64,000 nucleotides of DNA, from contig VGJS01000018.1 in assembly GCA_016867395.1 (NCBI GenBank), forward strand, positions 227 to 64,226. Reading direction: 5' to 3'. The position numbers were made by a program, and so were the translations under genes. Origin of the DNA: Candidatus Handelsmanbacteria bacterium (GTDB taxonomy: Bacteria > Latescibacterota > UBA2968 > UBA8231). Under the pieces are notes generated by a model. That model ran no database searches. It saw nothing but the letters and a program-made list of their open reading frames with translations, and was not told the DNA's origin. This document shows positions 40,941-64,000 of this stretch, piece after piece (the first letter of the stretch is position 1; each line of letters starts with the position of its first letter).

Positions 40941-42073
<1,133 letters not shown>

Positions 42074-42074
<1 letters not shown>

Positions 42075-45065: not shown

Positions 45066-46285
45066 TGCCTGCCCGCTCCTCCTCCGTCGCCCTGGCCGTG
45101 CTCGCCGCGGCCCTGGGCTTCTTCGTCGATGCCTACGACCTCCTGCTCTACAGCATTGTCCGGAACCAGAGCCTGAAAGGCATCGGCCTGGAGGGCGAGG
45201 CGTTGCTGTCCACTGGCATCGACCTGCTCAACGCCCAGTTGATCGGCATGCTGCTGGGCGGGATCGGCTGGGGGGTGTGGGGCGACCGCCATGGCCGGCG
45301 CTCGGTGCTCTTTGGCTCCATCGTGCTCTACTCGGCGGCCACCTTTGCCAACGGTTTCATCGATACCATCGGCGCCTACGCCGCCTGCCGCTTCATCGCC
45401 GGCCTGGGCCTGGCCGGCGAGCTGGGCGCCGGGGTCACCCTGGTGGCCGAACTAATGACGCCGCAGCAGCGCGGCTACGGCACCATGATCGTGGCCGCGG
45501 TGGGGGTCCTGGGGGTGGTGACCGCCTCCCTGGTGGGCGATACCTTCCCCTGGCGCACCGCCTACTTCATCGGCGGCGGCCTGGGTTTTCTGCTGCTCCT
45601 CCTCCGCCTCGGGGTTAGCGAGTCGCTGCTTTTCGACCGCACCAAGGCGCTGCCGGTCTCGCGCGGCAATTTCCTCGCCCTCTTCACCACCCCTGACCGA
45701 TTGAAGCGGTACGCCTGCCTGATCCTGGTGGCCATGCCCATCTGGTACGCCATTGCCATCCTCGTCACCTTTGCCCCCGAGCTGGGCCTGGCCCTGGGCC
45801 TGCCCGAGGCGCCCAAGGCCGGCATGGCGATCCTGCTCTACTACCTGGCGCTTACCGGTGGCGACCTGACCAACGGCTACCTCAGCCAGCGGCTGCAGAC
45901 CCGCAAACGGATCATCGCCGCGTTCATGCTGCTCACCGCGGCCAGCGGCGCGGCCTACTTCGCCCTGGGCGGCGCCTCGCTGAACCTGTTCTACGCCATC
46001 TGTTTCCTGCTCGGCTGGTCCTCGGGCTACTGGGCCATCTTTATCACCGTCTCGGCCGAGCAATTCGGCACTAACCTGCGCGCCACCGCCGCCGTCACCG
46101 CCCCCAATTTCGTGCGCGGTCTCACCGCCCTGCTCACCCTGGCCTTCAAGAACCTAAAGCCACTGCTCGGCACCGTGCCCGGCGCCGCGCTGATCGGCGT
46201 CCTCGTCCTCCTGCTTGCCCTTGTGGCCCTCTTCCAGCTGGAAGAGACCTACGGCAAGGATCTGGACTACCTCGAGCCGGTCTGA
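45065..46285 (+). CDS. MFS transporter
   Basis: The ATG overlaps the upstream TGA. 12-TM-like. MFS signature [10 protein letters not shown] between TM2 and TM3, and [13 protein letters not shown]. Confidence 0.85.
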
Positions 46286-46303
46286 ACGACCCGCGTCGAC
46301 CGC

Positions 46304-47550
46304 ATGCGGTGGTGGCACGAAGGCCCGCTTCAACATGTTCGTGCACTGGGGCCTGTATGCCCAACTGGGCCGCCACGAATGGGTGATGAACCGCGAGCGC
46401 ATCCCCCTGGATGAGTACGAAAAACTCGCCGATACCTGGAAACCAGGCGAGCGCCTGGGCCCGCCTGGCCAAAGAAGCCGGGATGAAATACCTGGTGATG
46501 ATTACCAAACACCACGAGGGCTTCTGCCTGTGGGACACGGCGCAGACCGACTAAAACGCCGCCCGCCGCAGGCCCGGGCGCGACCTGGTGGCCGAGTACG
46601 TCGAGGCCTGCCGCGAGTTCAATCTCAAGGTTGGGTTCTATTACTAGCCCATGAACTGGCATCACCCGGACGGGGCGATGTGCGCCAAGGACGAGGCCGC
46701 CCGCCACTGTTTCCTCGATTTCACCCAGGGCTGTTTGCGCGAACTGTGCAGCAACTACGGCCGGATCGACATTCTCTGGCACGACGTTTCCTGGCCGCTG
46801 TCTTCGCCCGAGTTGTGGGAAAGCGTCGCGATGAGCCAGATAGCCCGCCAGCTGCAGCCCCACCTCATCCTCAACAACCGCGCCCAGCTCGACGAAGATT
46901 TCGGCACCCCCGAGGAACACGTCACCGCTGAGAAGGAGGGCCGCGCCTGGCAGGCGTGTATGACCTTCAACGGTTCCTGGGGGTACATGCCCATTTCGCC
47001 TTACTGGCGGCCGGTGCGCGAAGTAGTGGGCCTGCTCAATGCGGCCACCGCCGACAGCGGCAATCTGTTGTTGAACATCGGACCGGCCCCCGACGGCTCG
47101 GTGCTGCACGAAGTAGTGGAGCACCGAGCCGCGCTGGGCAAGTAGCTAGCCCCCAACTAGGAGGCCATCTACGGCCAGGTGGACCGCACCCAGGGGCGGA
47201 TGGAGTGGCTGCCCACCGGCTCGTGGACCCTCAAGGGCAACACCGCGTACTTATGTTGTACCCGCTGGCCGGGCAAGGCAATGGCCATCGGCGGGCTGAG
47301 GGCAAAGGTGGAGCGCGCCACACTGCTGGCCAGCGGTCAGGTCCTCACCTGCGAGCAGAGCGACAACCGCTTGGTGCTCAAAGGTCTGCCGGCGACCCAA
47401 CCTGACAGCGTCGCCGGCGCCACCCTCATCAAACTTGAATGCAGCGCCCCGCCCAAACAGGTCCTGGGCGTTGAATACGTGGTGCTGGAGTACTTAGTTT
47501 GCCGGGCGCGTCCTTCGCGGCGCACCTGCCCCCTTGCCGAGGAGCCCTGA
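46304..47550 (+). pseudogene. alpha-L-fucosidase (GH29) pseudogene: two frameshifts and four in-frame stops
   Basis: Reading across three frames gives MRWWHE / [41 protein letters not shown] / [40 protein letters not shown]...[15 protein letters not shown]...LLLNIGPAPDGS...ALGK*LAPN*EAIYG... Stops at 46552 (TAA), 46645 (TAG), 47143 (TAG) and 47158 (TAG). It is colinear with the intact paralog at 55205-56428. Confidence 0.8.
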
Positions 47551-48275
47551 TGGCCAAGTACGAAAAACCACTGCCCCTGCCCGGCGAGGTCTTTGGCGTC
47601 GCTGGGCGCACCGCCTTCCTCATCGCCCCGGAGCGGGCCAGCCGGCCTCGGCCCTGGATCTGGTACGCCCCCACCCTGCCCGGCACCCCCAGCCCCGAGG
47701 AAGGCTGGATGTTCGAGCAGTTCCTGGCGGCCGGCGTCGCTATCGCCGGCATCGACGTGGGCGAATCCTATGGCAGCCCCAAGGGCCGCCGCCTCTTCTC
47801 GGCCCTGCACACCGCCCTGGCCCGGCGGGGTTACTGGAAACGACCCTGCCTGCTGGCCCGCAGCCGCGGCGGCCTGATGCACTACAACTGGGCCGCCGAA
47901 AATTACCGCCTGGTAGCCGGCGTCGCCGGCATCTACCCAGTCTGCGATCTGACCACCTACCCCGGCCTGAAAACCGCCTGCGGCGCCTACGGCTTGAGCG
48001 AGGCGGGGCTGGCGGCGCGCCTGGCCGAGCACAACCCCGTCGAGCGCCTCGCCACCCTGGCCAGGGCCCGGGTGCCCCTTTTCCACACCCACGGCACCGA
48101 GGACACGGTGGTGCCCTTCGACCGCAATGCCGCACTGGTGGCCCGCCGCTACCACAAACTGGGCGGCCGGATGACCCTGCGGGTGTTAGAGGGCCAGGGC
48201 CACAACTGGTGGCCCGGCTGGTTCCAGTGCCAGGAACTGGTGGACTTCGCCATCGCCCGGGCCCATTCGCGATGA
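47550..48275 (+). CDS. alpha/beta-hydrolase (dienelactone hydrolase / prolyl oligopeptidase-like) family protein
   Basis: The ATG overlaps the TGA of the pseudogene frame (TGATG). 241 aa. Contains LARSRGGLMHYNWA (nucleophile-elbow-like region) and PLFHTHGTEDTVVPF. Confidence 0.75.
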   Translation: MAKYEKPLPLPGEVFGVAGRTAFLIAPERASRPRPWIWYAPTLPGTPSPEEGWMFEQFLAAGVAIAGIDVGESYGSPKGRRLFSALHTALARRGYWKRPCLLARSRGGLMHYNWAAENYRLVAGVAGIYPVCDLTTYPGLKTACGAYGLSEAGLAARLAEHNPVERLATLARARVPLFHTHGTEDTVVPFDRNAALVARRYHKLGGRMTLRVLEGQGHNWWPGWFQCQELVDFAIARAHSR

Positions 48276-48294
48276 CCAAGGAGGCTGCAAAGCT

Positions 48295-48483
48295 GCGGCG
48301 GGGAGATAACCCCGAGGCCTTTCCTGGGGAGTGGTTGGGCAGGGAAGTCCGCGTGTCGGGGTCCGGGTAGCTGCGCCATGCGAGCGGGTGGACGCAACGC
48401 CCCTAAGTATGGGGCGTTGCGGGGGTGGAGGGGATGAGATGGGCGCACCTTGGGAAAGGCCGGAGTGGGTCGCTCCCCGACGC
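48295..48483 (+). repeat. dispersed GC-rich intergenic repeat, copy B (long form with hairpin module)
   Basis: Colinear with copy A (10203-10399) over its full length, with scattered substitutions and small indels. Terminal inverted repeat GCGGCGGGGAG / CTCCCCGACGC. Ends 32 nt before the ATG at 48516. Confidence 0.75.
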
Positions 48484-48515
48484 CACCCCAGGATCAACGA
48501 GATAGAAACCGGCCG

Positions 48516-49268
48516 ATGGCTACTCCCCAGCAGTGGGCCGAGGAACTGCTGCCCAAGCTGCGCCTGCGGGGTGACGAGTCCCTGCTGGACCTGGGCTGCG
48601 GCGACGGCAAAATCACCGCGCTCCTGGCCGCCCGCCTGCCCCGCGGCCAGGTCCTGTGGGTGGACCTGTCGCCGGCGATGATCGAACTGGCGCAGTCGCG
48701 GTTTCCCCCGGCGGCCTACCCGAACCTTGCCATTGTGCAGATGGACCCGGCGCACCTCACCCTGGAGCCGCGTTTCGACCGGGTCTTCTCCAACGCCACC
48801 CTGCACTGGGTAGCCAACCACCTGGCCGTGCTGCAGGGGGTGCGGGCCTGCCTGCGGCCCGGAGGACGCATCCTCTTCCAGATGGGCGGCCGGGGCAACG
48901 CGGCGGCGGTTTTTTAGGCGCTGGCCGAGGTGGTCGCACGGCCCGCATGGCGCGGCGCTTTCGGCGGTTTCGCGAACCCGTACTCCTTCTACGGCCCCGA
49001 GGAATACCGGCAATGGCTGCCCCAGGCCGGTTTTCACCCGGTGCGCCTCGAACTGATCCCCAAGGACATGCAACACGCGGATGCCTCCGGCCTGCGGGGC
49101 TTGCTGCGCACCACCTGGTTCCCCTACGCTGACCGTCTGCCCGAGGAGCGGCATGCCTCCTACGTCGACGCGGTGATCGCCGCCTATCTGCAACACCATC
49201 CAGTGGACCTCTCCGGCGGCACCCATCTCGCCATGATCCGCCTCGAGGTCGAAGCCCATGCCGGCTGA
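48516..49268 (+). pseudogene. class I SAM-dependent methyltransferase (trans-aconitate methyltransferase-like) with a single in-frame TAG
   Basis: MATPQQWAEELL...LLDLGCGDGKITALLA (motif I)...RILFQMGGRGNAAAVF, TAG at 48915-48917, then in the same frame ALAEVVARPAWRGAFGGFANPYSFYGPEEYRQWLPQAGFHPVRLELIPKDM...IRLEVEAHAG. ORFs 48450..48917 and 48930..49268 share one frame. Confidence 0.7.
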
Positions 49269-50672
49269 AGCCACCGGACTGCTGCTTTTGCTTGACGAGG
49301 CAGTGGTCTCCCGCACCGCCGACTGCCGCCAGACCTTCCACGCCCCGGTCAAGGACCCCGCCAACCCGGTGCTCACCGCCACCGAACCCTGGAAGGGACG
49401 CGGCCCCTACACCTGGAGCACCCGCCTGCTGTGGAACCCCGAACGGGGCCTGTACGACTTCTACTACGTGGGTTTTCGCTTCGAGGATAATCACTACCGC
49501 TGGGAACTGGCCGAATTGGCGGACGGCTTCACCTGGACCAAACCGGATCTCGCCATCGAGACCTTTGCCCGCGCCCCGGCCCGCAACATGCTCACCGGCG
49601 GGCCGCACCCGGACAAGGCGGTGCGCTGCGTGGTCCGCGATCCCCGGCCCGACTGCCCGCCGGCCGAGCGCTACAAGGCCATCCGTTTTACCTATCTTGG
49701 CTTGTACGTCTCCTTTTCGCCCGACGGCCGGCGCTGGACCGAGGACCCGGGCAACCCGTTGTGGCGGGTGCCTTAGGACATCATCCACGCGATGTGAGAC
49801 CCCGGCTGTGAGCGCTTCGTCGCCTACTTCAAACTCTGGAAGGTCACCGGCGAGACCCCCGACCCCAGCACACCTTCTGGCTGGCGCCCGGTGCGCAAGT
49901 ACCTGCCCTATTTCTCGTGCCGCCTCGACGCCGAAGAGTTCTACGATGAGATCGAGGTCGAGTTGGACCTCGAAGGAGCGGCGGCAACCCGGCCCATCGA
50001 GGGCCTGCGGCTGCGCACCGCCGACCAGGGCATGGACGGCGGGGGCGGCGCTCCGATCACCGGCGCTTGGCACGCCCGCCGGGTGGTGACCCGCGCCGAG
50101 AGCAACAACTTCTGCCGCTGGCGCCGCGAGGAGATCCTCCTGCGTGTCGATGAGCGGGGCAACTTCATCGGCCAGGGCCCACCCGGCGCCTTCGGCAGCG
50201 GCATGGTGCCCCCACCGACCCCGTGCTCACCGAGACCCAGCTGGTCTTCTACTACGGCGGCTTCGACCTCAAGCACTGGCAGCGGGTGGCCGCTCCCTGG
50301 TCCTCGGCCATCGGCCGTGCCTCGATGCGCCGCGACGGCTTTTCCTCCTGGGACAATCTGCCGGGCCGCACTGGCACCGTCGAGTCCCAGCCCCTCCTGG
50401 CGCGGGGGGCCGACCTGTGGCTCTACGCCGATCCCCGGGCCGGACAGCTCCGGGTGGAGGTACGGGACGAGGGCGGTTAGGTGATCCCCGGTTTTGGGGC
50501 GGTGGACTGTACCTACCTCACTGAGGATACCGCCTGGTACGCGCAGTGCCTGGCGGCGATGCGCTTATCCTGGCTGGGGAACACGGTGACCGGCGCTGAT
50601 CCCGCCCCCAGCAAGACCCCCCTGTTTACCGGCGCCCCACGGCACTTGCCGCCCTGCCCGCCGGAAGGTTGA
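49258..50672 (+). pseudogene. glycoside-hydrolase-like beta-propeller pseudogene (three in-frame stops, at least one frameshift)
   Basis: MPAEATGLLLLLDEAVVSRTADCRQTFHAPVKDPANPVLTATEPWK... (same family start as 23711-25321) ...SPDGRRWTEDPGNPLWRVP*DIIHAM*DPGCERFVAYF... The frame switches near 50200-50215 to DPVLTETQLVFYYGGFDLKHW...VRDEGG*VIPGFG. Stops at 49774 (TAG), 49795 (TGA) and 50478 (TAG). Confidence 0.65.
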
Positions 50673-50751
50673 CACGGTCGCAGGTTCCCGCTAAGATCCA
50701 CAAGGTTCCGCAGCGCGGAGCCGCTGCCCTTCTCTGACCCGAGGTGAATCC

Positions 50752-51258
50752 ATGAAGGTCTCGGTCTTCATCGCCGCCAGCCTCGACGGATACATCGCCC
50801 GGAGCGATGGCGGTCTCGACTGGCTCGAGGACCCGCCGGACTTGGAAGAGGATTACGGGTACAAGGCGTTCATACGCAGCGTTGACACGCTGGCGATGGG
50901 CCGGGGCGCCTTCGAGAAGGTCCTCACCTTTCCCGAGTGGCCCTATGAAGGCAAGCGGGTCATCGTGCTCTCGCGCACCCTGCGCCAGTTGCCGCCCGGA
51001 TTCAAGGAGCGGGCCGAGCTACGCCGCGAGCTGCCCGCGCAGTTGGTGGAACACCTGCGCTGCCAGGGCTGCACCCGGATCTACGTGGACGGGTGCCTGA
51101 CCATTGAGGCCTTTCTCAACGCCGGCCTGATCACCGCACTGACCCTCACCCGCATCCCCCCTTCGGCCGGCTGGGCCGCGACCTGCGCCTGCTGCACCAG
51201 GACACCCCGCGCCTACTTTTCGGGCTTCGTGCAGTCCACCTATACCCTCCCGGCCTGA
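50752..51258 (+). CDS. dihydrofolate-reductase-like (RibD C-terminal domain) family protein; C-terminal region possibly damaged
   Basis: MKVSVFIAASLDGYIARSDGGLDWL...VDTLAMGRGAFEKV...KRVIVLSRT...IYVDG...FLNAGLI is family-typical. Residues 135-153 (PPSAGWAATCACCTRTP) are atypical, whereas an alternative frame reads FGRLGRDLRLLHQDTPR. Confidence 0.65.
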   Translation: MKVSVFIAASLDGYIARSDGGLDWLEDPPDLEEDYGYKAFIRSVDTLAMGRGAFEKVLTFPEWPYEGKRVIVLSRTLRQLPPGFKERAELRRELPAQLVEHLRCQGCTRIYVDGCLTIEAFLNAGLITALTLTRIPPSAGWAATCACCTRTPRAYFSGFVQSTYTLPA

Positions 51259-51993
51259 ATGGACCCGGCCGCGTACCTGGAACGCCTGGGCTGCATCTTC
51301 CCTGCGCGGCCCGATGCCCAGAGCCTGCGCCGCCTGCACCTGGCCCACCTGCGCTGCGTGCCCTTCGAGAACCTCGACATCCACCTGGGCCGGCCTATCC
51401 GCCTATTACTCCCCCTCCAATACGACAAGATCGTGGGCCGGCGGCGGGGCGGTTTCTGTTACGAACTCAACGGACTCTTCGCCTGGCTGCTCGCATCACT
51501 GGGTTATCGAGTGGAACTGCTCTCGGCCCGGGTGTACGGGCCCCAGGGCCTGGGTCCCGAACTCGACCACCTGACCCTGCGGGTCCGCGGCGAGGGCGAC
51601 TGGCTGGCGGACGTGGGCTTCGGGGACTCCTTCCTCGAACCCCTGCCCCTGGCGCCAGGCACCCCGGCCGCCGGCTATCGGCTGACAGAGGCGGCGGGCC
51701 AGTGGACCCTCCACCAGCAGCAGGCCGGCGGCGAATGGGCGCCCCAGTACCTCTTCTCCCTGCGCCCTCATCGCCTGGAGGACTTTGCGCCGGCCTGCCT
51801 CTTCCACCAGACCGACCCGTCCTCTCCTTTCACCTGCAAGCGCGTCTGCACCCTGGCCACCCCGCAGGGCCGCCGCACCCTGAGCGAACTGAAGCTCATC
51901 ACCACTGCTGGCGGCAGCCGGCACGAACGCCTGCTCGCTGGCGAGGCAGAGTGGCGGGAGGCGCTGCGCCAGCATTTCGGGGTGGTGCTCTGA
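51259..51993 (+). CDS. arylamine N-acetyltransferase (NAT) family protein
   Basis: VPFENLDIHLGRPI, RGGFCYELNGLF (catalytic Cys), LDHLTL (His), ADVGFGDSF (Asp). 244 aa. Confidence 0.85.
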   Translation: MDPAAYLERLGCIFPARPDAQSLRRLHLAHLRCVPFENLDIHLGRPIRLLLPLQYDKIVGRRRGGFCYELNGLFAWLLASLGYRVELLSARVYGPQGLGPELDHLTLRVRGEGDWLADVGFGDSFLEPLPLAPGTPAAGYRLTEAAGQWTLHQQQAGGEWAPQYLFSLRPHRLEDFAPACLFHQTDPSSPFTCKRVCTLATPQGRRTLSELKLITTAGGSRHERLLAGEAEWREALRQHFGVVL

Positions 51994-52021
51994 GAGGCAG
52001 GCTGAATCCAGGGTCTGAGGA

Positions 52022-52164
52022 GGGTCGGGGATGCCCTGGAGGTGTCGCCCGTGGAGCGGTTGGGAAGGGCAGACCGCGTGGTGGAATGGCCGGGCAGCGG
52101 AGCGAAGCGAGCGAAAGTGAAGGGTGCGCCTGGGGAGACACCGGAAGGGTATCCCTGACCCGAC
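52022..52164 (+). repeat. dispersed GC-rich intergenic repeat, copy D (diverged)
   Basis: ...GGAGCGGTTGGGAAGGGCAGACCGCGTGGTGGAATGGCCGGGCAGCGGAGCGAAGCGAGCGAAAGTGAAGGGTGCGCCTGGGGAGACACCGGAAGGGTATCCCTGACCCGAC aligns with the cores of copies A, B and C but has many substitutions. Boundaries are approximate. Ends 68 nt before the ATG at 52233. Confidence 0.5.
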
Positions 52165-52232
52165 AACCCGTCGCGGCCCACCTTTGTCCTCACCACCCCT
52201 TTTCCTAATATTGTCCCTCGGAGGACCCTCCC

Positions 52233-54703
52233 ATGACCAACACCCGACTCGACCTCAGCGGTAGCTGGCAGTTGCGGGAGGACCGCCCCGGCAGCCAGCC
52301 CATCCCCGCCGAGGTGCCCGGCGACACCCACAGCGCCCTTTTGGCCGCCTGCCTCATCTCCGATCCCAACTGGGGCAGGAACGAACTCGACCTCCAGCAC
52401 CTCAACCGCCAGGACTGGGTCTTCTCGCGCGCCTTTGCGGTGGACGAGGCCCTGCTGAAGGCCAAGTACGTTTACCTCCATTGCGACTCCCTCGACACCA
52501 TCGCCGAGGTGTACCTCAACGGGCTGTTGGCGGGGCAGTCCACGACATGTTCGCGCGCCGCCGCTTCGAGGTGCGCCCCCTCCTGCACCCCGGCAACAAC
52601 CAAATCGAGATCCGCCTGCGCTCCGCCGAGAACAAGGCCCGCCACCTGGCTGCCCGGGGACCCTACGAGGTGCCATGCTCGGAATACCCCGTGCAGTCGC
52701 CCCACCGCAACCTGGTGCGCAAGGTTCAGTGCCACCGCGGCTGGGACTGGGGCTGCTGCCTGATGGTGGCTGGGGTGTACGGCGAGATCTTTCTGGCCGC
52801 CGCGGACCCTGGGTGCATCGAGTACGTGTACACCGATCACGAGCACCAACTTAGCCTGTGCCGGCTCAAGGTGCACTGCGAGGTATGGGCGCCCCGATGG
52901 GGCGAAACCGAACTGGAGGTGTCCATCGGCGGCCAACACCACCAGCGCCAGGGGAAGTTGCAGCCCGGGGTGAATTAATTGGCGGAGGTAGTCGACATCC
53001 CCTCGCCCCGCCTGTGGTGGCCCAATGGCTGCGGGGCACAGCCCTTGTACGAGTTGGAGGCAAAAGCCGCCGGGGACACGGTGTGCAAGCGCCGGGGCCT
53101 GAGAAAGCTCGAACTGTTCGCCGAGCCCGACGAGATCGGCCTGGGTTTCAAGTTCCGCGTCAACGGGCTGGACATCTTCGCCAGGGGAGCCAACTGGATC
53201 CCCTGCGACGCCCTGCCCGCCCGCCAGACCCGCGAGGTGCTGGACGACCTTCTCAGCAGCGCCCCGCAGGTCGATATGAACATGCTCCGCGTCTGGGGTG
53301 GAGGGCAGTACGAGTCCGAGGCCTCCTACGATCTGTGCGACGAGAAGGGCCTCTTGGTCTGGCAGGACTTCATGTTCTCCTGCTCCGCCTACCCGGCCAC
53401 CCCCGAGTTCCTGGCCAATGTCGAGGAGGAGGCCCGCCACCAGGTAGAACGGTTGCGCGACCGCGCCTGCCTGGCCCCCCTGTGGTGCGGCAACAACGAG
53501 GACCTGGGGGCGCTCAACTGGTATGAGGTGTCGCGGAAAAACCGCGACCGCTACCTGGTGGACTACGACCGCCTCAACGAAGGGGTGCTGGGCCGGTTGG
53601 CCGACGAGTGCGACCCCACCCGCACCTTCTGGCCCAGTTCCCCTTGCGCCGGCTGGGGGGACTACTTGGACAGCTGGCGCGGGGACATGCACTACTGGCG
53701 GGTCTGGCACGAGGGCCACTCCTTCGACGCCTACTACGCGGTGACCCCCCGCTTCTGCTCCGAGTTCGGGTATCAGTCCTTCCCCTCCCTGGAGTGTATC
53801 CGAAGTTACGCGCCCCCAGACCAGCTAAACGTCACCGCGCCCGTGGTGGAGCACCACCAGCGCCACCCAGGGGGCAACGCCCGCATCGTCGAGATGTTCG
53901 CTCGCTATTTCCGCCTGCCCGAGGGCGTAGCCAAGTTCGTCTACCTCAGCCAGGTGCAGCAGGGCCTGGCCATCAAGGCCGCGGTGGAGCACTGGCGCCA
54001 CCTGCGGCCGGTGTCTATAGGCACCATGTACTGGCAACTCAACGACCTGTGGCCGGTCTGTTCCTGGTCCTCCCTCGAATACAGCGGCAAGTGGAAGCTG
54101 CTGCACCACATGGCGCGGCGCTTCTACGCCCCGGTCATCGCCTCGGCCTTCCAGACCCAGGCAGGAGAACTGGAACTGTGGCTGACCAACAACCGCAACA
54201 GCGCAGTGCCCTCGCACCTCACCCTGCGGGTCCTGGATTATGCGGACGTGGAACAGGGCCGCCGCGAGTTCACCGCCACCGCGCCCGCCGGCAGCGCCCT
54301 CAAGCTGGGTGTTTTCCCAATGGCCGAGCTGGCCCCCCGGCCCGACCAGGTCTTCGCCGTGCTCGATCTGGAAAGCGGCGGGGAGACCTACCGCACTACC
54401 CACTTCTTTGTCCCGTACAAAGCCTGCGAACTGAAGCCGGCCCAGGTGCGTACAGGGATCTCCGGCAAGGGCAGGCAACTCACCCTCACCCTGTCCACCG
54501 ACGCCCCGGTCTTCTTTATCAGCTTGGAGGTGGAAGGCTGGCGCGGGGAGTTCGATGACAACTGCATCACTCTATTGCCTGGCGCGAAGCGGCAATTGCG
54601 CTTCACCGCCAAATGGCCGACCCCCACCCGGAAACAGTTCGAGCAAGCGCTGGCGGTCGGCATCTGCGGGGGAGCTACTTTAGCCCCTGAAAGGCTGCAG
54701 TGA
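52233..54703 (+). pseudogene. beta-mannosidase-like GH2 gene with one frameshift and one in-frame TAA
   Basis: MTNTRLDLSGSWQLRE...DTIAEVYLNGLLAGQS (frame 0) switches near 52547 to (H)DMFARRRFEVRPLLHPGNNQIEIRL...KVQCHRGWDWG... TAA at 52976-52978 is followed in frame by LAEVVDIPSPRLWWPNG...FRVNGLDIFARGANWIP...VWGGGQYE...WQDFMF...CGNNE...HYW.VWH...SEFGYQS...MYWQLND. Confidence 0.8.
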
Positions 54704-55083
54704 TGTTGCACCCCGTCAAAGAACTCACCTACGCCATCCTGCTGTGCGACGACTTAGAGGCCATGAAGCGGTTCTATTGCGGGTTATTTCCCGTCGAGGT
54801 CCTCCAGGTCGTGGAGTCCGCGATTGTCCTGGGCCTCGGGTCCACCCAGTTCGTCCTTCGCCAGCGCACCCGCACCTATGACGGCCTGGGGCCCCGTCTT
54901 GGGGTCCCAGGGGTCCAGCTCTGCTTTCGCGTCGGCCCCGAGGAGGTTGAGCCCTGCTACCAGCAACTCCTCGCCCAAGGCGTTGCCATCGCCGAGCCGC
55001 CCACCGATCAGCCCCGAGGCCACCGGACGGTATATTTCTTCGATCCAGAGGGTAACCTCCTGGAAGTATATGCCGAAATCTAG
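54703..55083 (+). CDS. VOC (glyoxalase/bleomycin-resistance/dioxygenase) family protein
   Basis: The ATG overlaps the upstream TGA (GTG at 54700 is an alternative start). Ends ...HRTVYFFDPEGNLLEVYAEI, typical of the VOC fold. Confidence 0.8.
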   Translation: MLHPVKELTYAILLCDDLEAMKRFYCGLFPVEVLQVVESAIVLGLGSTQFVLRQRTRTYDGLGPRLGVPGVQLCFRVGPEEVEPCYQQLLAQGVAIAEPPTDQPRGHRTVYFFDPEGNLLEVYAEI

Positions 55084-55204
55084 CTTGGGGAAGCTCCCCT
55101 TACATCCACAGATAGGTCGCTCCTCCATGCGGCGCTTCTTGGCCCCACTCCGCCACTTTGCCTAGATTTCACCCCAGCCCCTCACCGCCATCCGGAGGAT
55201 TCCG

Positions 55205-56428
55205 ATGCGACCCACCGAAGACACCTCCAAAGCCCGACTCCAGGCCGCCCCCGCCGCCGTGCAAGCCTACCGCGACGCCCGCTTCGGGCTCTTTGTCCAC
55301 TGGGGGGTGTACGCTCTGATCGGCCACGGCGAATGGGTGATGCACACCGAGAAGATCCCCTTGCCCGAGTACGAAAAGCTGCCGCCCTGCTTCAACCCCG
55401 CCCAGTTCTCCGCCGAGGAATGGGGCGACCTAATGCTGGCCTCGGGCCAGAAGTACCTGGTCATCACCAGCAAGCACCACGACGGCTTCTCGATGTTCGG
55501 CAGCGCCCTCACCGAATACAAGATCACGCGGACTCCCTTTGGCCGCGACCCCATCGGAGAGTTGGCCGCGGCCCTGGGCAAGCGCGGCCTCAGGCTGGGT
55601 TTCTACTATTCGCTGCTCGACTGGCACCACCCCGCTTACGCCAGCGACTGGCCGGCCTACGTCCGCTACTACCAGGGCCAGGTGCGCGAACTGTGCACCC
55701 GCTACGGGGAGATCGCCCTGATCTGGTTCGACGGGTACTGGCCCGGCCACGAGCCCCCAGGACCCCACTTCCTCGAAAAGGGCTCCTGGGACCTGGCTGG
55801 CACCTACGACTTGATCCACCAGTTGCAGCCCAAGGCCCTGATCGGCAACAACCACCACGTCCCCCCGCTCAAGGGCGAGGACTTCCAGATGTTCGAGCAG
55901 GACCTGCCCGGCGAGAACACAGCCGGCTTCAATTCGGGGAGCATGGGCAAACTGCCCCTCGAATCCTGCCTGACCATCAACAAGCACTGGGGCTACAACC
56001 CCGAGGACCACGCGCACAAGTCCGAGGCCGAGATCATCCGCTTCCTCGCCGAGTGCATCGGCCGCGACAGTAACTTCCTGCTCAACGTCGGCCCCACCCC
56101 GCTGGGCACCATCCATCCCGAGCACGCCCAGCGCCTGCGCGGGGTGGGAAACTGGCTGCGCACCAACGGCGGATCCATCTACGGAACCCGTCCCCTGGCC
56201 CGCCAGGACTGGGGCTACGCCGTCCACAACCCCACGACCGGCAAGGCTTACCTCCATATCCTCAACTGGCCCGGCGCTTCCCTCAGCGTGGAAATCCCCA
56301 CGGTCGCCTCGGCCGCCCTGCTGGCCACCGGCAAATCCTTGCCGGCCCGGCGCGAAGGCGATAAGTTGGTCCTCACCTTGCCCGCCTCGGCCCCCGACCC
56401 GGCGGACACCGTGGTGGTGCTGAACTGA
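55205..56428 (+). CDS. alpha-L-fucosidase (GH29), intact
   Basis: Full ORF, 407 aa: ARFGLFVHWGVYALIGHGEW, YLVITSKHHDGFSMF, GFYYSLLDWHHP, IWFDGYW, FLLNVGPTPLGTI, WLRTNGGSIYGTRP. Confidence 0.9.
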   Translation: MRPTEDTSKARLQAAPAAVQAYRDARFGLFVHWGVYALIGHGEWVMHTEKIPLPEYEKLPPCFNPAQFSAEEWGDLMLASGQKYLVITSKHHDGFSMFGSALTEYKITRTPFGRDPIGELAAALGKRGLRLGFYYSLLDWHHPAYASDWPAYVRYYQGQVRELCTRYGEIALIWFDGYWPGHEPPGPHFLEKGSWDLAGTYDLIHQLQPKALIGNNHHVPPLKGEDFQMFEQDLPGENTAGFNSGSMGKLPLESCLTINKHWGYNPEDHAHKSEAEIIRFLAECIGRDSNFLLNVGPTPLGTIHPEHAQRLRGVGNWLRTNGGSIYGTRPLARQDWGYAVHNPTTGKAYLHILNWPGASLSVEIPTVASAALLATGKSLPARREGDKLVLTLPASAPDPADTVVVLN

Positions 56429-56443
56429 GGATGAGTGATTGCT

Positions 56444-56589
56444 GCGGCGGGGAGACGACCCCGAAGGCCCCTCTTCGGGAGTAGTTGGGAAGGGAAGGAC
56501 GCGCGAGGGGGAGGGGAGAGCGGAGCCAGAGCGAGCGGGGCGGCAAGTCCGCGCCTTGAGCGAGGCCGAAGAGGGTCGCTGCCCGACAC
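56444..56589 (+). repeat. dispersed GC-rich intergenic repeat, copy C (short form without hairpin module)
   Basis: GCGGCGGGGAGACGACCCCGAAGGCCCCTCTTCGGGAGTAGTTGGGAAGGGAAGGACGCGCG...GAGCGGAGCCAGAGCGAGCGGGGCGGCAAGTCCGCGCCTTGAGCGAGGCCGAAGAGGGTCGCTGCCCGACAC. Ends 25 nt before the ATG at 56615. Confidence 0.7.
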
Positions 56590-56614
56590 CTTACCCTATC
56601 TGAGAAAGCCAACT

Positions 56615-57658
56615 ATGGCCGCCGACGAAGAGCTGACCCGATTCGTGCGCGAGGCCCTCGGCAAAGGACTGCGTAGGGCAAAGGTCGAAGAGGTGCTGCT
56701 CCTGGCCGGCTGGGAGGAGGCGCAGGTCCGCAACGCCCTGGCCGCGTACGCCGACCTCGACTTCCCCCTGCCCGTCCCCCGGCCCAAACCCTACCTCTCG
56801 CCCCAGGAGGTGTTCCTCTGCCTGGTGCTCTTCACCGCCCTGTACCTGAGCGCCTTCCACCTGGGCAGCCTGGTCTTCCGGTTCATCGAAGCCGCCCTGC
56901 CCGATCCGGCCGATATGGACCCCCACGTCCGCGAGACCCTCCGCTGGTCCGTCTCCTACCTGATCATCGCCTTTCCCCTCTTCCTCTACGTCGCCCGCAT
57001 CCTAGCCCGCAACGACGCCCGCGCCCCGGCTGCCCAGGTCTCCCCGGTGCGCAAATGGCTCACCTACCTGACCCTCTTCCTGGCCGCCGGCGCCCTGGTG
57101 GGCGACGCCACCGCCCTGGTCTACAACCTGCTCAGCGGCGAACTGACCCCCCCCTTCCTCCTCAAGGTCCTCGCCGTGGCCGCCATCGCCGGGGGGATAT
57201 TCGGCCACTACCTGGGCGAGTTGCGGCGCGACGAACAGAAAGGGCCCTTGGCACCGGCCTCCCACCGCTTTCTCTGGGTCTCCAGCGGGGCAGTGGTCCT
57301 GGCCCTGGGAGGCAGCTTCCTGCAACTCGATGCCCCAGCCCAGGAGCGGGTGCGCCGCCTCGACAACCGCCGGGTGGAGGACCTGCGCCACCTCGCCGGC
57401 GCCGTGGACCTGTACTGGTCGCGGCGGGGGACCTTGCCCGGCACCCTGGAGGCCCTGACCGAGGAGCAGGGTTTTGCGCCCCAGGCCGCAGACCCGACCA
57501 CCGGCCAGCCCTACGAGTACCACGTCCTGGGCGCCCGCGCCTACGAACTGTGCGCCGAGTTCGAGCGCCCCTCGGAAGAGGGGGAGCTGGCCGGCTTCTG
57601 GTCCCACGGGGCGGGGCGGCACTGCTTCCAGTTCGAAGCGAAAAAGTCGGCGCGGTGA
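56615..57658 (+). CDS. DUF5671-like integral membrane protein with C-terminal periplasmic domain
   Basis: Internal ATG MAADEELTRFVREALGKGLRRAKVEEVLLLAGW... of ORF 56435..57658. It has four or five TM segments. The upstream part of the ORF is the translated repeat copy C. Confidence 0.65.
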   Translation: MAADEELTRFVREALGKGLRRAKVEEVLLLAGWEEAQVRNALAAYADLDFPLPVPRPKPYLSPQEVFLCLVLFTALYLSAFHLGSLVFRFIEAALPDPADMDPHVRETLRWSVSYLIIAFPLFLYVARILARNDARAPAAQVSPVRKWLTYLTLFLAAGALVGDATALVYNLLSGELTPPFLLKVLAVAAIAGGIFGHYLGELRRDEQKGPLAPASHRFLWVSSGAVVLALGGSFLQLDAPAQERVRRLDNRRVEDLRHLAGAVDLYWSRRGTLPGTLEALTEEQGFAPQAADPTTGQPYEYHVLGARAYELCAEFERPSEEGELAGFWSHGAGRHCFQFEAKKSAR

Positions 57659-59178
57659 GGCGCCCCCGGCTGCCGGGTGTCGGCAGCAGTCCTAGCCTAC
57701 TGGCGCTCCTGGCCTTGGCCCTGCACCTGGAGACCAACCTCCTGGGCGGGTACGGCTACTTCCGCGACGAGTTGTACTATATCGCCTGCAGCGAGCGCCT
57801 CGACTGGGGCTACGTGGACCACCCGCCCCTCTCCATCCTGCTTTTGCGGCTGAGCCGCCTGCTGCTGGGCGATTCACTTTTCGGCCTGCGCCTGCTGCCG
57901 GCCCTGGCCGGGGCCGGGCTGGTCTGGCTGACCGCGCTCCTAACCCGCGAGTTGGGCGGCGGCCAGCAGGCCGAAACCCTGGCCGCCCTGGGGGTGTTGA
58001 TCGCCCCCATCTGCCTGGGCCTTGGCGATTTCTATTCCATGAACGCCTTTGAGCCCTTGTGCTGGACGGGATGCACCCTGCTGCTGGTGCGCCTGGTGCG
58101 CGGAGAGGAGCCCCGACGCTGGCTCTACCTGGGCGCGCTGGCGGGCCTGGGCCTCCAGAACAAACACAGCCTGGCCTTCTTCGCCGGGGCCGCGCTGCTG
58201 GGCCTGCTGCTGACCCCGCAGCGCCGGCTGCTTTTCAGCCCCTGGTGCTGGATGGGGATGGGCCTGGCCCTGCTGCTAATATTGCCCAATCTGCTCTGGC
58301 AGCACCTGCATGACTGGCCCACCCTCGAATTCCTCCTTAATGCCCAGGCCCAGAAGAACTACCTGCTCTCGCCCCTGGAATATCTCTTGGCCCAGATGCT
58401 CTACCAGCACCCCCTCGCCCTGCCCCTGTGGGCCGCCGGGGCCCTGGCTCTCCTCTTGCACCCGCGCCTGCGGGAATTCCGGTGTTTTGGCATCGCCTTT
58501 ATCGCCCTGCTGGCCTTCTTCGTGATCCAGCGTGGCAAGCCCTATTACCTGTCCCCCATCTTCCCCCTGCTCCTGGCCGCCGGCGCCGTGGCCGCCCAGT
58601 GGCATCTGCGCCCCCGCTGGCTCAACACCTACACCTTACTGCTGGCCCTGGGCGGGGCCCTCACCCTGCCCCTGGCCCTGCCCCTGCTCCCACCCCAACC
58701 CTTCATCCGCTATGCCGCATACCTGGGGCTGGGCGAGGTGAAGACCGAAAGGCATGGGGTTGCGGCCCTGCCCCAGCACCTGGCCGACCGTTTCGGCTGG
58801 CCCGAGCTAGCAGCAAGCGTGACCCAGGTGTACCGCAGCCTGTCCCCCGAGGAGCAACATCAGACCGCCCTCTACACCCAGAACTACGGCGAGGCCGGGG
58901 CCTTGGAGTTCTACGGCCGCCCACAGGGCCTGCCCCCGGTCCTTTGCGGCCACAACAACTACTGGCTCTGGGGCCAAGACCCCTCCACCCCCCAGGTGCT
59001 CATCGCCGTGGGCGGCCATGCCGACAACTACCGGGCCGCCTTCGGCTCCGTGGAGCAGGTCGCCCTCCACACCCACGAGTACGCCATGCCCTACGAGCGC
59101 GACCTGCCCCTCTTTCTCTGCCGCGACCCCCTGCTGCCGCTGGCCAAACTCTGGCCGGCGGCCAAGCGGTACCTATAG
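57655..59178 (+). CDS. glycosyltransferase family 39 (ArnT/PMT-like) membrane protein
   Basis: The GTG at 57655 overlaps the upstream stop (GTGA). GYFRDELYYIACSERLDWGYVDHPPLS, multiple TM segments and a C-terminal soluble domain. The start is uncertain. Confidence 0.75.
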   Translation: MRRPRLPGVGSSPSLLALLALALHLETNLLGGYGYFRDELYYIACSERLDWGYVDHPPLSILLLRLSRLLLGDSLFGLRLLPALAGAGLVWLTALLTRELGGGQQAETLAALGVLIAPICLGLGDFYSMNAFEPLCWTGCTLLLVRLVRGEEPRRWLYLGALAGLGLQNKHSLAFFAGAALLGLLLTPQRRLLFSPWCWMGMGLALLLILPNLLWQHLHDWPTLEFLLNAQAQKNYLLSPLEYLLAQMLYQHPLALPLWAAGALALLLHPRLREFRCFGIAFIALLAFFVIQRGKPYYLSPIFPLLLAAGAVAAQWHLRPRWLNTYTLLLALGGALTLPLALPLLPPQPFIRYAAYLGLGEVKTERHGVAALPQHLADRFGWPELAASVTQVYRSLSPEEQHQTALYTQNYGEAGALEFYGRPQGLPPVLCGHNNYWLWGQDPSTPQVLIAVGGHADNYRAAFGSVEQVALHTHEYAMPYERDLPLFLCRDPLLPLAKLWPAAKRYL

Positions 59179-59209
59179 AAAGGGGCGGCCCCCTGCCGGA
59201 GACCGCCCC
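59176..59209 (-). terminator. candidate terminator hairpin between convergent genes
   Basis: GGGGCGG (59182-59188) / CCGCCCC (59203-59209) with a 14-nt loop. On the minus strand it is followed by TTTCTAT. Confidence 0.35.
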
Positions 59210-59230
59210 CGTGGCACTGCCGATTTCTGG

Positions 59231-62200
59231 CTACTTCAGCAGCAGCGCGCGCACCTGGGTGAACTCCCCGGCCTGGAGCCGGTAGAAGTACACCCCGCCG
59301 GCCATCGCCCGCCCCCCCTCGTCCCTGCTGTCCCACGCCACCCGGTGGAAACCGGGCTCGGCGGGCCCCTGTGCCAGGGTCCGCACCTTCTGCCCCAGCA
59401 CGTCGTAGATCTCCAGTCGCACCGGGGCAGGCTGGGGCAACTGGTAGCAGATCACCGTGGTCGGGTTGAAGGGATTGGGATAGTTGGGCTGCAAGGCAAA
59501 GACCTGCGGCATCCAGCGAGCCTCCACCTGCCGCCAGGCGCTGGGGCTGGCGGAGCCGGCCCTGCGCGTCGCGCGCGGTGGCCTCTCGCACCCGGAAGAG
59601 CCCGCTGGCCTCGGGTCTGAGCGGTCCAAAGTGGAGTTCGGCCAGCAGCCCCTCTGCCGCGCCCTCGCCACCGGTCCGGCCCAGGCCCACCAGCACCTGG
59701 CCGGGCTGTTCCTGCTTTTGCAGCAAGAGCGGCGGGGCCTCGCCACCCTCCCGCAGCAACCGGAAGAGCGCCCGATCGTACTCCACCACCGCCCCGACCC
59801 CGCGCAAGGCCAGGGACTGGGTGCGCAATTCCAGCACCAGCCCTTCCGTGGTAGAGCGGGGGATCAGGGCCAGCCCGCCGGCCACCACCGGCTGCGGCGG
59901 CAGTGCCGCCGGCTTGCCCACCGACTTGCCGAAGAGATCGGCAAAGGCGAAGAAGTGGCCAAAGGCGATGCTGCCGTCCCCGTCCAGGTCATAGGCCCTT
60001 CCGACCTCCGCCGCCGACTTGCCAAAGGCGTCGGCAAAAAGGAAGAAGTCGCTGAAGGCGATGGTGCCGTCCCCGTCGAAATCCGCTTAGGCCAGTTGGG
60101 CCTCGGTCGGGCCGCTCCCGGCCAGGGAGCCGGTCAGTTTGATCTCGCCCGTGCTGAGGCGGGCGAAGATCAGGCTGGAAACCTCCTGCTGGGTCCCACC
60201 CACCTGATTGAGGGCGTAGTTGGTGATGACCATATCGGTGGTGGCGAATTCCTCGGTGGTGGCAAAGGTCAGCCGGCCGATCAGGCCGCCCGCATCGGGC
60301 GCCGCTCCGGCCGTGGGCCTGAGGATAGCCGCCCCGAAGGTAGCCGAATTGTCGGTAGTGATGGCCGGCAACTGCGGCACCGTGCCGCCCCCGGCGATGA
60401 AGACGTTCTCCTCCTCGGCGGTTTCGGGGGCGTACCTGATGAAGCTGAGTTGATCCGGATCGAATTCCACCTTCACCGAGTAGTTGGGCAGGTACCTGAA
60501 AACCCCGTCGCCGGTCTTGTCGAAGTTAAGGTACAGGTCCACCTCCACCAGGGAGCCGGCGGCGATAAGGCCCTGGTTGAATACCTCCTGATCGCCCGAG
60601 GCCGTGTCGAAGTCGAAGGAGAACACTGCCTTGGTCTAGTCGAGGAAGACCGGGGGCACCAGCTTGGCCGTCAGGCCCCGGTGCAAATCGTCCTGGCCGG
60701 TCAAGGACTTGAGGTCCACGGTCTGCGTGGCGACCTGTGCGCCGGCAAACCCTTCGAGGATGCGGAAGGAGAAGCGGCCCAAAAAGCCCACGCCGTCCAC
60801 CGCGGTGGTTTCCATGGCTCCCAGGATGGCCCCGCCGAACTCCACCGTGCCCTCCCTTAAAAGGGGCGATAGAAAGAGGGCGGTGCCATCGTTGGCGCGC
60901 AGGAGATTTGCTTCCTCCGCCTCGTCGGCGGCCTCGAGGAACTCCAGCACTGCCGGATCGTACCCCAGCTTGACTGCGTACCCGGACACGTCTTCGGCAC
61001 CGGAGAGGTACACGTCGAGGGTCAGTTCCCCGCCCTCCTCCAGGTCGGCCAGGGAGGTCAGGCCCTGGTCGTCGGCGTCGAGGTCGATGCTGATCGCCGC
61101 CCCTTCGTTGCAGCCGGGTGGCACGGTCTTGACCGGCACCCCCGTGGCGGTGTCCTCCTCGGCCTCCACCACCACCATAGCCTTCAAATCGATGCCGGTC
61201 AACCGGGACCCTCCGGCCACACGCAGGGCCCCCTCTTAGATGGGGTTGAGTACCTGGCCACTGCCGGTGTGGATCTCGCCGAAGAGCTGGTAGGAACCGG
61301 GCAGCACCCCGTCGATCTGATAGACCCCGTCGGCCACCACCGGGCGGGCGCTGACCAGAGACAGGGTCCGGGGGCCACTGACCTGCATCAGGGTGACCGT
61401 GGCCGCGTCGATCTGATCGGCCTGGTCGCCGCTCAATTCGCTACCCTCCTCGTCCTGGTTCCTGAGGGTCACGCTGCCGGCGATGGCCCCGAAGGACACC
61501 TTGACCGCCCCGGTGCTGAAGGCCAGGTCCACGAGTCGCTGTAGCCGGCTGCCATCCTCGCCCTCGGCCTGGAACACCGAAAACTGGTAGAACTTCCCGG
61601 CCTGCAAGGCCACCGGGAAGACGATGGCCCGATGGTCGGGCTCCAGGCTGAAGTTGCGCAGCAACTGGCCGTTAAGGGCCGCCTCGATGGCCACAAAGCG
61701 CGACTCGGCCCGCAGGGGCTTGTTAAAGGCCACGCGGATGCCGCTTCTGGCCAGGTCTGCCCCGGCGGTGGGCCAGGCCACTGGGCCGGCCCCGCTCTTC
61801 AATTCGACCACCGGGGCATATTGGGAAGCGCCCTGCTGCGCCGCGCCCTGGGCCTGGGTGACAAAGAGCAGTTCGTCGCGGGTGCGCGACTCCCGTACCA
61901 GCACTACTTCCACCCCACGCTGCCCCGGCCGCATCCGCTCGGGGCGCCCGTCCGCACCAGAGACAGTGCCGAAGAGTTCGATGGTGTCGAAGGTCTGGCC
62001 GGGGTTGCGGTACCGCTCCTGGCGCAGGTCAAAGGCCGGCAGGGAGCGCTGGCGCGGATGGGGGGGGCCTGAAGCCCCTGGGCACCTCGACCAGGGCATA
62101 GGCGATGAGCACATACCCGCCGGTCAGGGGCAGGTGCTCGATGGTGAACTCGGGCGTGAAGGTGATGGCCGAAGCGGCGATCTCCCCCTCGTCGAATGCC

Positions 62201-64000
62201 GACAGGCCGAACTCCCTGCTTTCCAGATTTTCGTAGGGCACCAGGCCGACGAAGATCGGCCCCAGGAAGCCCCGGTTGCCGGGCAGATCGGGCAGGAGCA
62301 GGCGGCCGCTGAGGCTGCGGCTGCCGGCAAAGGCAGCCCCGTTGGTGAACACCGCCGTGGCCGCCTCGCCCAACTGGTTGCCCTCCTCGGCCTGTGCCCC
62401 CCGTACCACCACCCGGTAGACGGTGTCCGCAGCCAGTTTGAGGGGCAGGGTGTAGACCGCGCCGCTGGTATCGACCTCCAGCTCGCCCTGCTCCTTTGGG
62501 GGCGGGAGGATCAGCACCTCCTCGGCCTCCAGCAGGGCGGCCTTGTTGAACTCGATCCTGAGCCACCTCCCTAGCCACCCCCACCGCCCCCGACTGCGGG
62601 CCGCAGGAGACCACCTGCAGAGGTTAGGGCAGGGACCCCTGCAGGTCTACCTTTACCTCCTGGTTCGCCGCCACTACCACCGGCTCCGCATGCTGCGCCT
62701 GGAGATCGAGCAGCCCGCCCGGCCCCAGGTTGAGGGTGAGGAAGGCGGCCAGGTGATAAGTGCCCGGGTTGACGTTCTCGAAGGAGAGGCGCGGGCCGTT
62801 GAGCGGCGCCCCGGCTACGATCAGGTCGTCCAGTTCCCCGGCATCCGGGTCCAACCCGCCCGCGGGCGCCTCGGATAGCAGCACCGCGTAGGACTGGCCA
62901 GGCACAAAGCCGGCGTTACCGGGCAGCTCGGCCGGCAGCCGGATCTCGCCGGCCACCGAGGCGGCGGAGATCTCCTCGCCGGTGGAGAACTGGATGGGGT
63001 ATAGTCCGGTGTCGCGGCTGATGACGACCAGTTGATAGACCTTGTCCTCCTCCAGGTCCACCTCGGTCGAGATGGAACAGCCGTCGGCGCTGATCTCCAG
63101 CCCGCCGAAGGACAGAGGCTGCGGGAAGACCATGAACTGAAACTCGGGCTGGAAGAGCAGGTCGTTGACCGGCTGGTTGAAGGTGACCTCCACCGCGCCG
63201 GCGGCGGGGATCTCCACGTCCCCGTCCTCGGGGAAGGAGCCGATCACCCGTCGCCCGGCGCCCTGCTGGCGCAGGAATATCTCGTAGTCAGCCGGATCGA
63301 CCCTGCCGTTGCGGTCCAGGTCCGCAGCCTGGGAGCCGCGCAGCCACTCCTCCTGGCCGGGCAGGTTGGGCTGACCCGGCCGTTGCGATTCCCTGCGGCG
63401 CCTGGCTGAGGCGGATCTTGAAGGCCACCGGCCGGGTCTCGCCCCGGTCGTACCGGGGCGCGGCTGGGCGCCAGGTGGACATAATCGCCCTCCGTTAGCT
63501 CGCCCAGGGCGATGGGCCGGCCGCCCTACCCCTGGATATTGGCGTCGGTGGGCACCTGGAAGAAGGGACCGGCCTGCACCAACTCGCTGTCCTCGACCGC
63601 TTCAAAGGAATGGGTCTTCACCCCAGGGCGCTGGAAGGTCTGCACTGCCGGGTCCACCACCCTTGTGCAAGTGACCACTGAGCCGCGCCTGCCTCCGGGC
63701 CGGGTGTCGATCTCTAGCAGTTCGCTCTCCACCAGATAGTCCAGGCCCACCTTCTCGTCGTCAAGGCCAAAGACCAGGGCGTGGGCATACATTTCGAGGC
63801 GCTCCCCTTCGCGGGAAAGATAGCACCCGCTCTCGTCCACCCCGGCGATGTACCCCTCGACCCGGATCTCCTCCTGGGGAGTTCTCCCGTCGGCGGAGGG
63901 CTCCTGGCCCGGCTGCTGGGTGGGAGGAGCCCCGCCGCCGGCCGCCGCGGCCACCACCACCACCTCGGTGGCCACCGGATGCCTGTCGCCGAAGCCGGGC
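59231..64000 (-). pseudogene. very large surface protein gene (SbsA-Ig-like, cohesin-like and dockerin/EF-hand-like modules, C-terminal T9SS sorting domain), heavily disrupted; 5' end beyond window
   Basis: Ten minus-strand ORF pieces (63526..63975, 63288..63482, 62624..63247, 61904..62614, 62029..62517, 61236..62114, 60636..61220, 60087..60626, 59091..59921, 59231..59746) join into one colinear protein. In-frame stops at 63526 (TAG), 62624 (TAA), 61236 (TAA), 60636 (TAG) and 60087 (TAA). Frame changes near 63450-63480, 63260-63290, 62560, 62060 and 59560. The C-terminus FALQPNYPNPFNPTTVICYQLP...VRLEIYDVLGQKV...GVYFYRLQAGEFTQVRALLLK is a T9SS-type CTD. Confidence 0.65.
59922..60086 (-). repeat. 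tandem pair of dockerin/EF-hand-like calcium-binding repeats inside the surface-protein pseudogene
   Basis: ADFDGDGTIAFSDFFLFADAFGKS ... YDLDGDGSIAFGHFFAFADLFGKS: two DxDGDGxI..xDFF.FAD.FGKS units. Confidence 0.6.

Follow-up and report, generated by a model that had tools for sequence, protein, structure and literature searches.

The 64,000-nucleotide stretch of DNA analysed here, referred to as the window, is part of contig VGJS01000018.1 (positions 227 to 64,226 of the forward strand; assembly GCA_016867395.1) from Candidatus Handelsmanbacteria bacterium, a member of the Latescibacterota; a scan of species-representative genomes assigns the locus to a freshwater Candidatus Latescibacterota. 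Its G+C content is 64-70% throughout, about 68%. The part from 46.3 to 64 kb holds five broken genes interleaved with intact ones, and these encode a GH29 alpha-L-fucosidase, a class-I S-adenosylmethionine (SAM) methyltransferase, an unclassified protein of 526 amino acids (aa), a GH2 beta-mannosidase, and a giant surface protein. We consider it highly probable that all five are true pseudogenes. The lesions themselves are present, reproducible, lineage-specific, and confined to particular genes.

Four syntenic loci from sister species, with 75-86% nucleotide identity to the window, were used for comparison: L009 (metagenome-assembled genome [MAG] SJ679), L010 (the Lake Baikal MAG Baikal-deep-G198), L088 (a metagenome contig) and L168 (a 120-kb ENA contig). 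This comparison, which had been proposed in an earlier note on this DNA, recovered uninterrupted orthologs of every broken gene except GH29, i.e. of four of the five. The giant protein is at least 1677 aa long in L009 and 1841 aa in L088, GH2 is about 821 aa, and the methyltransferase is 258 aa (L088); the 526-aa protein has that length in L088 and corresponds to a 599-aa stop-to-stop open reading frame (ORF) in L010. Lesions were mapped against these orthologs or, for GH29, against homologs of 416 aa.

Five disrupted genes and their lesions

All 14 positions at which the earlier note had reported in-frame stop codons do hold stop triplets (eight TAG, five TAA and one TGA; 5 of the 14 are on the minus strand), and each interrupts a frame that the intact ortholog or close homolog reads through with a sense codon. 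Together with 11 frameshifts these make up the lesions of the 46.3-64 kb region. The note's estimate of at least nine frameshifts is thus borne out, but not their distribution over five genes: there are two each in GH29, the 526-aa gene and GH2, five in the giant gene, and none in the methyltransferase, so that frameshifts affect four genes and stops all five. Lesions of other kinds are deletions of 150 nt (526-aa gene) and 45 nt (methyltransferase) and a 5′ truncation of GH29. Each of the five genes has full-length homology to intact relatives of normal length, relative to which its frame is broken by stops or frameshifts. The probability that 25 of 25 randomly placed lesions would land in the 10.7 kb occupied by these genes, out of about 37.8 kb of coding sequence, is about 0.28^25. 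An ORF map based on G+C content at third codon positions (GC3) resolves the region into chains of coding-like fragments that either abut in frame or change frame, and adjacent fragments match successive parts of a single Pfam domain (Glyco_hydro_2_N2, and Alpha_L_fucos over several pieces).

The GH29 pseudogene (46286..47550, plus strand) was recognized from Pfam Alpha_L_fucos matches on its fragments and reconstructed against the 416-aa fucosidases, to which the reconstruction aligns over 100% of its length with 82% identity. It has lost its first 9-17 codons, adjoining the stop codon of an MFS gene, and its natural stop is also gone. Frameshifts at about 46321 and about 46450 place its tblastn matches in three frames, and the stops at 46552, 46645, 47143 and 47158 replace conserved Y, S, W and Q residues of the 416-aa proteins. 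We also considered whether it is a recent duplicate of an intact GH29 gene at 55205; this was rejected, as the two share about 37% protein identity and their nucleotide similarity is restricted to two short stretches.

The SAM methyltransferase pseudogene (48516..49268, plus strand) was identified by Pfam and by comparison with the intact 258-aa ortholog at L088:2999-3775. It has lost a conserved N-terminal motif to a 45-nt in-frame deletion and is interrupted by a TAG at 48915. As the L010 ortholog ends nearby, this TAG could be taken for the natural end of the gene, but the position is internal to the L088 ortholog, which reads through it; the methyltransferase of L010, moreover, has an internal deletion of about 358 nt (L010 7117-7728).

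Downstream is the pseudogene of the 526-aa protein (49258..50672, plus strand), compared with intact ORFs at L010:7502-9298 and L088:3786-5363. Three codons have become stops—TCG to TAG at 49774, TGG to TGA at 49795, and CAG to TAG at 50478—and the gene has a 150-nt deletion at 50154, a 4-nt deletion at 50208 and an insertion at about 50565. The earlier label of a GH-like propeller finds no support, as the protein has no Pfam match and no sequence match in the PDB. Three further TGA triplets (49054, 49174 and 49234) appeared when the stop-to-stop ORF of L088 was aligned; these were discarded, being located before the true start codon (ATG at 49258) in an alternative frame of the methyltransferase.

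The GH2 beta-mannosidase pseudogene (52233..54703, plus strand) was recognized from a split Pfam Glyco_hydro_2_N2 match, with profile positions 1-92 in one frame and 90-166 in another, and from comparison with the intact L088 ortholog (stop-to-stop ORF 6906-9434, 843 aa; called proteins 819-821 aa). Its lesions are a 1-nt deletion at 52541, a TAA at 52976 in place of CTG, and a 1-nt deletion at 54658 that replaces the last eight residues. A 1-nt deletion at 52215 was not counted, as it lies upstream of the start codon at 52233. The homologs of 809-830 aa are all intact, and the closest to the GH2 fragment is 80% identical.

The pseudogene of the giant surface protein (about 1840 aa) is on the minus strand and occupies 59231..64000, continuing to about 64690; it was compared with intact ORFs at L009:10696-15726 (at least 1677 aa) and L088:14682-20204 (1841 aa). 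Its product would contain Big_5 and cohesin-like domains and a C-terminal FlgD_ig/Por_Secre_tail domain, and it is from these that we designate it a secreted or surface protein. There are five stops (63526, CAG to TAG; 62624, GAG to TAA; 61236, CAC or TAC to TAA; 60636, CAG to TAG; 60087, CAG to TAA) and, within the window, five frameshifts at 59533, 62067, 62563, about 63378 and about 63461; two more are present in the roughly 690 nt that extend past the window end. Farther out in the same direction, a 96-aa gene call in contig L001 (19854-20144, equivalent to window positions of about 65058-65348) consists of a Por_Secre_tail/FlgD_ig C-terminal domain only, and could be the end of a second large surface protein encoded beside the giant pseudogene.

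Recurrence of the lesions and alternative explanations

When the protein of the intact fucosidase gene at 55205-56425 was used as an exact-match query, eight contigs were retrieved: one of 178 kb from ENA, four from Logan assemblies, and three from JGI metagenomes that sampled the water column of Lake Tanganyika (PMC8245535). At least eight independently assembled contigs cover parts of 45.2-64 kb with 99.96-100% identity and zero gaps, so that the lesions are reproduced in assembled contigs from separate samples and pipelines. There are eight single-nucleotide polymorphism (SNP) sites among them, none of which coincides with a stop or an indel. A second look-up yielded six more contigs that confirm the sequence of 7.8-28.8 kb.

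The alternative that survives best, although we think it improbable, is that intact and broken alleles coexist in a heterogeneous population and that the assemblers return a mosaic or the majority allele. Population variation does exist in the window, with a haplotype diverged by about 3% at 16.0-17.2 kb, a polymorphic 90-nt indel at 12233, and contigs of several assemblies breaking at about 16-17 kb. In the 45.2-64 kb region, however, every contig carries every lesion and differences are limited to the eight SNPs, and mixing one intact with one broken allele cannot yield a gene with ten lesions. No intact allele of the GH2 fragment with more than 80% identity was found in a database of 5.8 billion proteins. 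Because the broken haplotype was assembled in every sample, a mixed-population consensus is unlikely to account for the lesions.

Far less probable still is that the genes remain functional, whether through reassignment of stop codons, through readthrough combined with programmed frameshifting, or as phase-variable contingency loci. The usage of stops is skewed, with 13 of the 14 premature stops being TAG or TAA and 29 of the natural stops of 40 intact genes being TGA; we attribute the excess of TAG and TAA to the common GC-rich codons CAG, GAG, TCG and TGG being one step from TAG. All three stop codons end intact genes (TGA 29, TAG 10 and TAA 1), so that TAG or TAA terminates 11 of the 40, at the places where their homologs end, and no alternative code rescues the pseudogenes. 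Furthermore, where the premature stops lie, homologs have sense codons for seven different amino acids (Q, E, H/Y, S, W, L and A), and recoding could restore neither the large deletions (150, 45 and 517 nt) nor the 5′ truncation. The giant gene does encode a surface protein, and such proteins are often phase-variable, yet it has 5-7 frameshifts and five stops, only one of the frameshifts is in a homopolymer, and all of them are the same in every contig; more generally, the frameshifts lie mostly outside repeats and no on/off polymorphism is seen among the eight contigs.

An equally negligible probability attaches to the stops and indels being errors of one poor consensus: some indels do fall in short homopolymer runs, such as the C-run at 62067, but 14 lesions are substitutions, no lesion occurs in 27 kb of coding sequence between and next to the pseudogenes, separate sample accessions argue against one shared erroneous read set, and assembly error is effectively excluded because the lesions recur in an identical sequence, without a single gap difference, in at least eight contigs from different samples, assemblers and archives.

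The claim of genuine pseudogenisation made in the earlier note is therefore supported by the lesions in at least eight contigs, by intact sister orthologs of four of the five genes, and by the lack of an intact GH2 allele above 80% identity in the protein collection. Several observations weigh on the other side. Differences among the retrieved contigs amount to about 0.03% of sites, and since retrieval by exact match to one protein favours identical sequences, their near-clonality is in part an artefact of the retrieval. The evidence comes from assembled contigs, and minority intact alleles may exist. There is no GH29 gene at this site in any of three sister loci, L010 and L088 among them, and the fucosidase could for this reason be a decayed acquisition, not an ancestral gene. 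On the window branch, changes at codon positions 1 and 2 relative to those at position 3 give a ratio of 0.57-0.58 in the pseudogenes and 0.39-0.66 in intact controls, and this test for relaxed selection thus did not discriminate between them. Finally, the analysis covered 64 kb, and the decay shown is that of the window.

Intact neighbours and decay elsewhere in the window

As the earlier note had held, genes interleaved with the pseudogenes are intact; compared with the sister loci, they have their full length. All are on the plus strand: an alpha/beta-hydrolase with a weak Peptidase_S9 match in Pfam (47550..48275; a single full-length high-scoring segment pair [HSP] in L010 and L088), a RibD_C-like gene (50752-51258; Pfam, full-length HSP in L009), an arylamine N-acetyltransferase (NAT; 51259-51993; Pfam, full-length HSPs in L009 and L088), a glyoxalase (54703-55083), the second GH29 fucosidase (55205-56428), a DUF5671 gene (56615-57658) and a PMT_2 glycosyltransferase (57655-59178). 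The last four are supported by Pfam, by gene calls, and by full-length HSPs in three sister loci; DUF5671 and PMT_2, which had been taken for one gene at 56615-59178, are two genes that overlap by 4 nt. Altogether, 20 of 20 tested intact genes of the window give single full-length HSPs in the sister loci.

The block 25324..46285 had been described as free of lesions, and none was seen in the 20 of its ORFs that were scanned against NCBIfam. Most of these have full-length profile matches, and the few with a weak or no family match are likewise uninterrupted; the Nramp and MFS genes are full-length against L010 and L088. The block encodes nadK, a garR-like reductase, a peptidyl-prolyl isomerase, oppD/F-type ATPases, rnc, fabF/G/D/H, ndk, an HD-domain protein, an FGE-sulfatase-domain protein, rlmI, Nramp and MFS. 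The contrast drawn earlier between decaying accessory genes and intact housekeeping genes holds in that this block is untouched, but is overstated: seven intact accessory genes lie between the pseudogenes, and the block itself includes transporters and the FGE-sulfatase-domain protein.

Decay is also seen in other parts of the window. The cNMP-binding gene at 8567..8961 (plus strand) has a frameshift at about 8740, as shown by tblastn with L168 proteins and by blastn; the adjoining gene, which encodes 698 aa in the sister species, is deleted in the window at 8964/8966, and a PhyH gene that is present in L168 has been lost entirely from the window lineage. A PrcB_C-domain pseudogene (11468..12148, plus strand) has stops at 11648 and 11891 and lacks its 3′ third relative to L168; the same fragments are called in contigs L172 and L173. 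A remnant of a 370-aa gene with a weak URO-D match (16505..17096, minus strand) has a 517-nt internal deletion at 16618, also relative to L168. Of the further lesions listed in the earlier note, those at 8.7 and 11.6-12.0 kb are thus confirmed by L168, as is the 16.5-17.1 kb part of those at 16.5-17.6 kb, and one at 4.27 kb is plausible: here a possible pseudogene of the FMN_bind_2 (PaiB-like) family (4268..4846, plus strand) lacks about 22 Pfam profile positions and has AGG at the start site, where PaiB-type proteins presumably begin with Met.

Two further candidates were rejected. The stops at 7788 and 8154, in one frame, are natural ends among three separate genes, the same three being present in L168. 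The FGE-sulfatase protein at 20773-23052 does not seem to be truncated by its stop at 23050, as the L168 call, longer by 125 aa, is better read as an Arg/Pro-rich read-through into an intergenic repeat; the comparison thus gave no confirmed lesion for the site at 23.1-23.7 kb listed in the earlier note. This protein has an internal tandem duplication (21582-22040 and 22434-22901, 67% nucleotide identity) and a single-domain paralog in the intact block, at 40899-42074. An intergenic repeat of about 190 nt, G+C-rich and with stem-loop-like inverted segments, occurs in four copies in the 64 kb, at 10205-10397 (plus), 48295-48483 (plus), 56441-56580 (plus, partial) and 16361-16455 (minus), and is also found in L168 (3071-3171). 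Two copies are 84% identical, and gene callers at times read the repeat as a protein tail rich in Arg and Pro; Rfam has no match to it, and an Rfam scan of the whole window gave no hits.

Polymorphism was observed at two places. A 90-nt deletion at 12233..12244, between CCCATGCCC direct repeats, is carried by the window and by L172 and is absent from L173 (4458-4547); it removes the lipoprotein signal peptide (MPALSPLLALSLALLVPGCGG...) from a 397-aa gene at 12236-13330. L172 (Ga0194131_10015616) is identical to the window over 7 kb except for one SNP and then diverges by about 3% at 16056-17208, where three indels (3, 36 and 1 nt) are spread across the shared pseudogene and the 5′ end of a GH123 gene. 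This divergence, together with the breaks of several assemblies at about 16-17 kb, suggests a recombined or co-existing haplotype. The GH123 frame itself (13335-17666, minus strand) is open for 1443 codons, of which the upstream 430 or so run through the remnant of the 370-aa gene; its orthologs are 1012-1016 aa long, and GH123 gene calls of 1240-1253 aa are probably over-extended. Both strands have a long ORF at 254-3061 (633 and 930 codons). Judged by GC3 phase, there may be a gene on the minus strand as far as about 1200 and one on the plus strand beyond that point; the plus-strand ORF has no Pfam match.

Age, cause and comparison with known systems

A stop codon would result from about 2.7-3.7% of all single-base changes in the orthologs; at this rate, the observed stop density would mean that four of the genes have undergone about 1-5% neutral divergence since they were inactivated, and a hand estimate for GH29 gives about 10%. 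Three of the TAA stops face CAG, GAG or CTG in the sisters and required at least two substitutions each. We infer that the pseudogenes at 46-64 kb are old and fixed, with roughly 1-10% neutral divergence since inactivation. The description of the decay as ongoing, put forward in the earlier note, draws weak support from the segregating 90-nt deletion at 12233 and from the extra indels of the 16.0-17.2 kb haplotype, and does not suit the lesions at 46-64 kb, which are fixed and old.

The probable cause is relaxed selection plus drift. Selection on the five genes would have been lost in this freshwater lineage of Candidatus Latescibacterota from Lake Tanganyika only; point mutations would then have produced premature TAG and TAA stops while small indels piled up, the broken alleles would have become fixed, and deletion would so far have been too slow to clear the remnants. 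Neighbouring genes that are still needed would have been kept intact by purifying selection.

Pseudogenes in MAGs are usually dismissed as assembly noise or split into "hypothetical proteins", and those described here are real, fixed and lineage-specific, which could be demonstrated because the sister species supply intact references. Called gene fragments of the matching contigs carry GH2 and GH29 Pfam hits, and if the density of about 15% holds genome-wide, metabolic reconstructions of this MAG would be unreliable where such fragments are counted as genes. The same density would then also represent natural reductive evolution in an uncultured candidate phylum of the lake water column. Genome reduction or a niche shift, as suggested previously, is a reasonable conjecture at the scale of 64 kb. 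A stronger version, which we regard as tentative and rather doubtful, is that the species is in genome-wide reductive evolution following a recent bottleneck or in a restricted, perhaps host- or particle-associated niche, and is shedding glycan-degrading and surface functions that its sisters keep; if true, few environmental and apparently planktonic bacteria would compare with it in having pseudogenes so dense, so old and with so many lesions each. Within the window, neither a fall in G+C (64-70%) nor an expansion of insertion sequences was found, no transposase family being present among the ORFs scanned against Pfam and NCBIfam, although no dedicated search was made. No report connecting pseudogenes with Latescibacterota came up in the library of literature that was searched.

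The five genes are a case of lineage-specific pseudogenisation, a known phenomenon, and are notable for their density in an environmental candidate-phylum bacterium and for the clean documentation provided by the sisters. They resemble classical bacterial pseudogenes, as in catalogues of the Pseudofinder type, in their full-length homology, multiple nonsense codons and indels, internal deletions, 5′ truncation, lineage specificity and intact neighbours. They differ in their high density for an apparently planktonic bacterium, 8-9 of about 56 genes in 64 kb (about 15%) being decayed in the window lineage, and in having many lesions each, which points to long persistence without deletion. About 44 kb of sister loci contain one remnant (RibD_C, L088) and one internally deleted gene (the methyltransferase of L010).

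The region is also similar to variable accessory-gene islands in that the content of 46-55 kb differs among all four lineages. L010 lacks RibD_C, NAT and GH2; L009 lacks GH2 and has an extra gene of 589 aa; and in L088 the RibD_C-like gene is reduced to 41 codons (6010-6132). The sister species thus also lose genes in this island, by deletion; their losses appear clean, whereas the window lineage keeps the same kinds of genes as decaying remnants.

Reductive evolution is known in Mycobacterium leprae, Sodalis glossinidius and the Polynucleobacter symbiont of Euplotes, all of them bottlenecked or host-restricted. Compared with such genomes, the window is alike in keeping many multi-lesion pseudogenes, in the very low diversity of the retrieved population, and in the environment-facing character of its losses, which comprise glycan hydrolases, an adhesin-like surface protein and a regulator. 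It differs in that the samples are lake water-column metagenomes, with no host association known, and in that the G+C content stays at about 68%.

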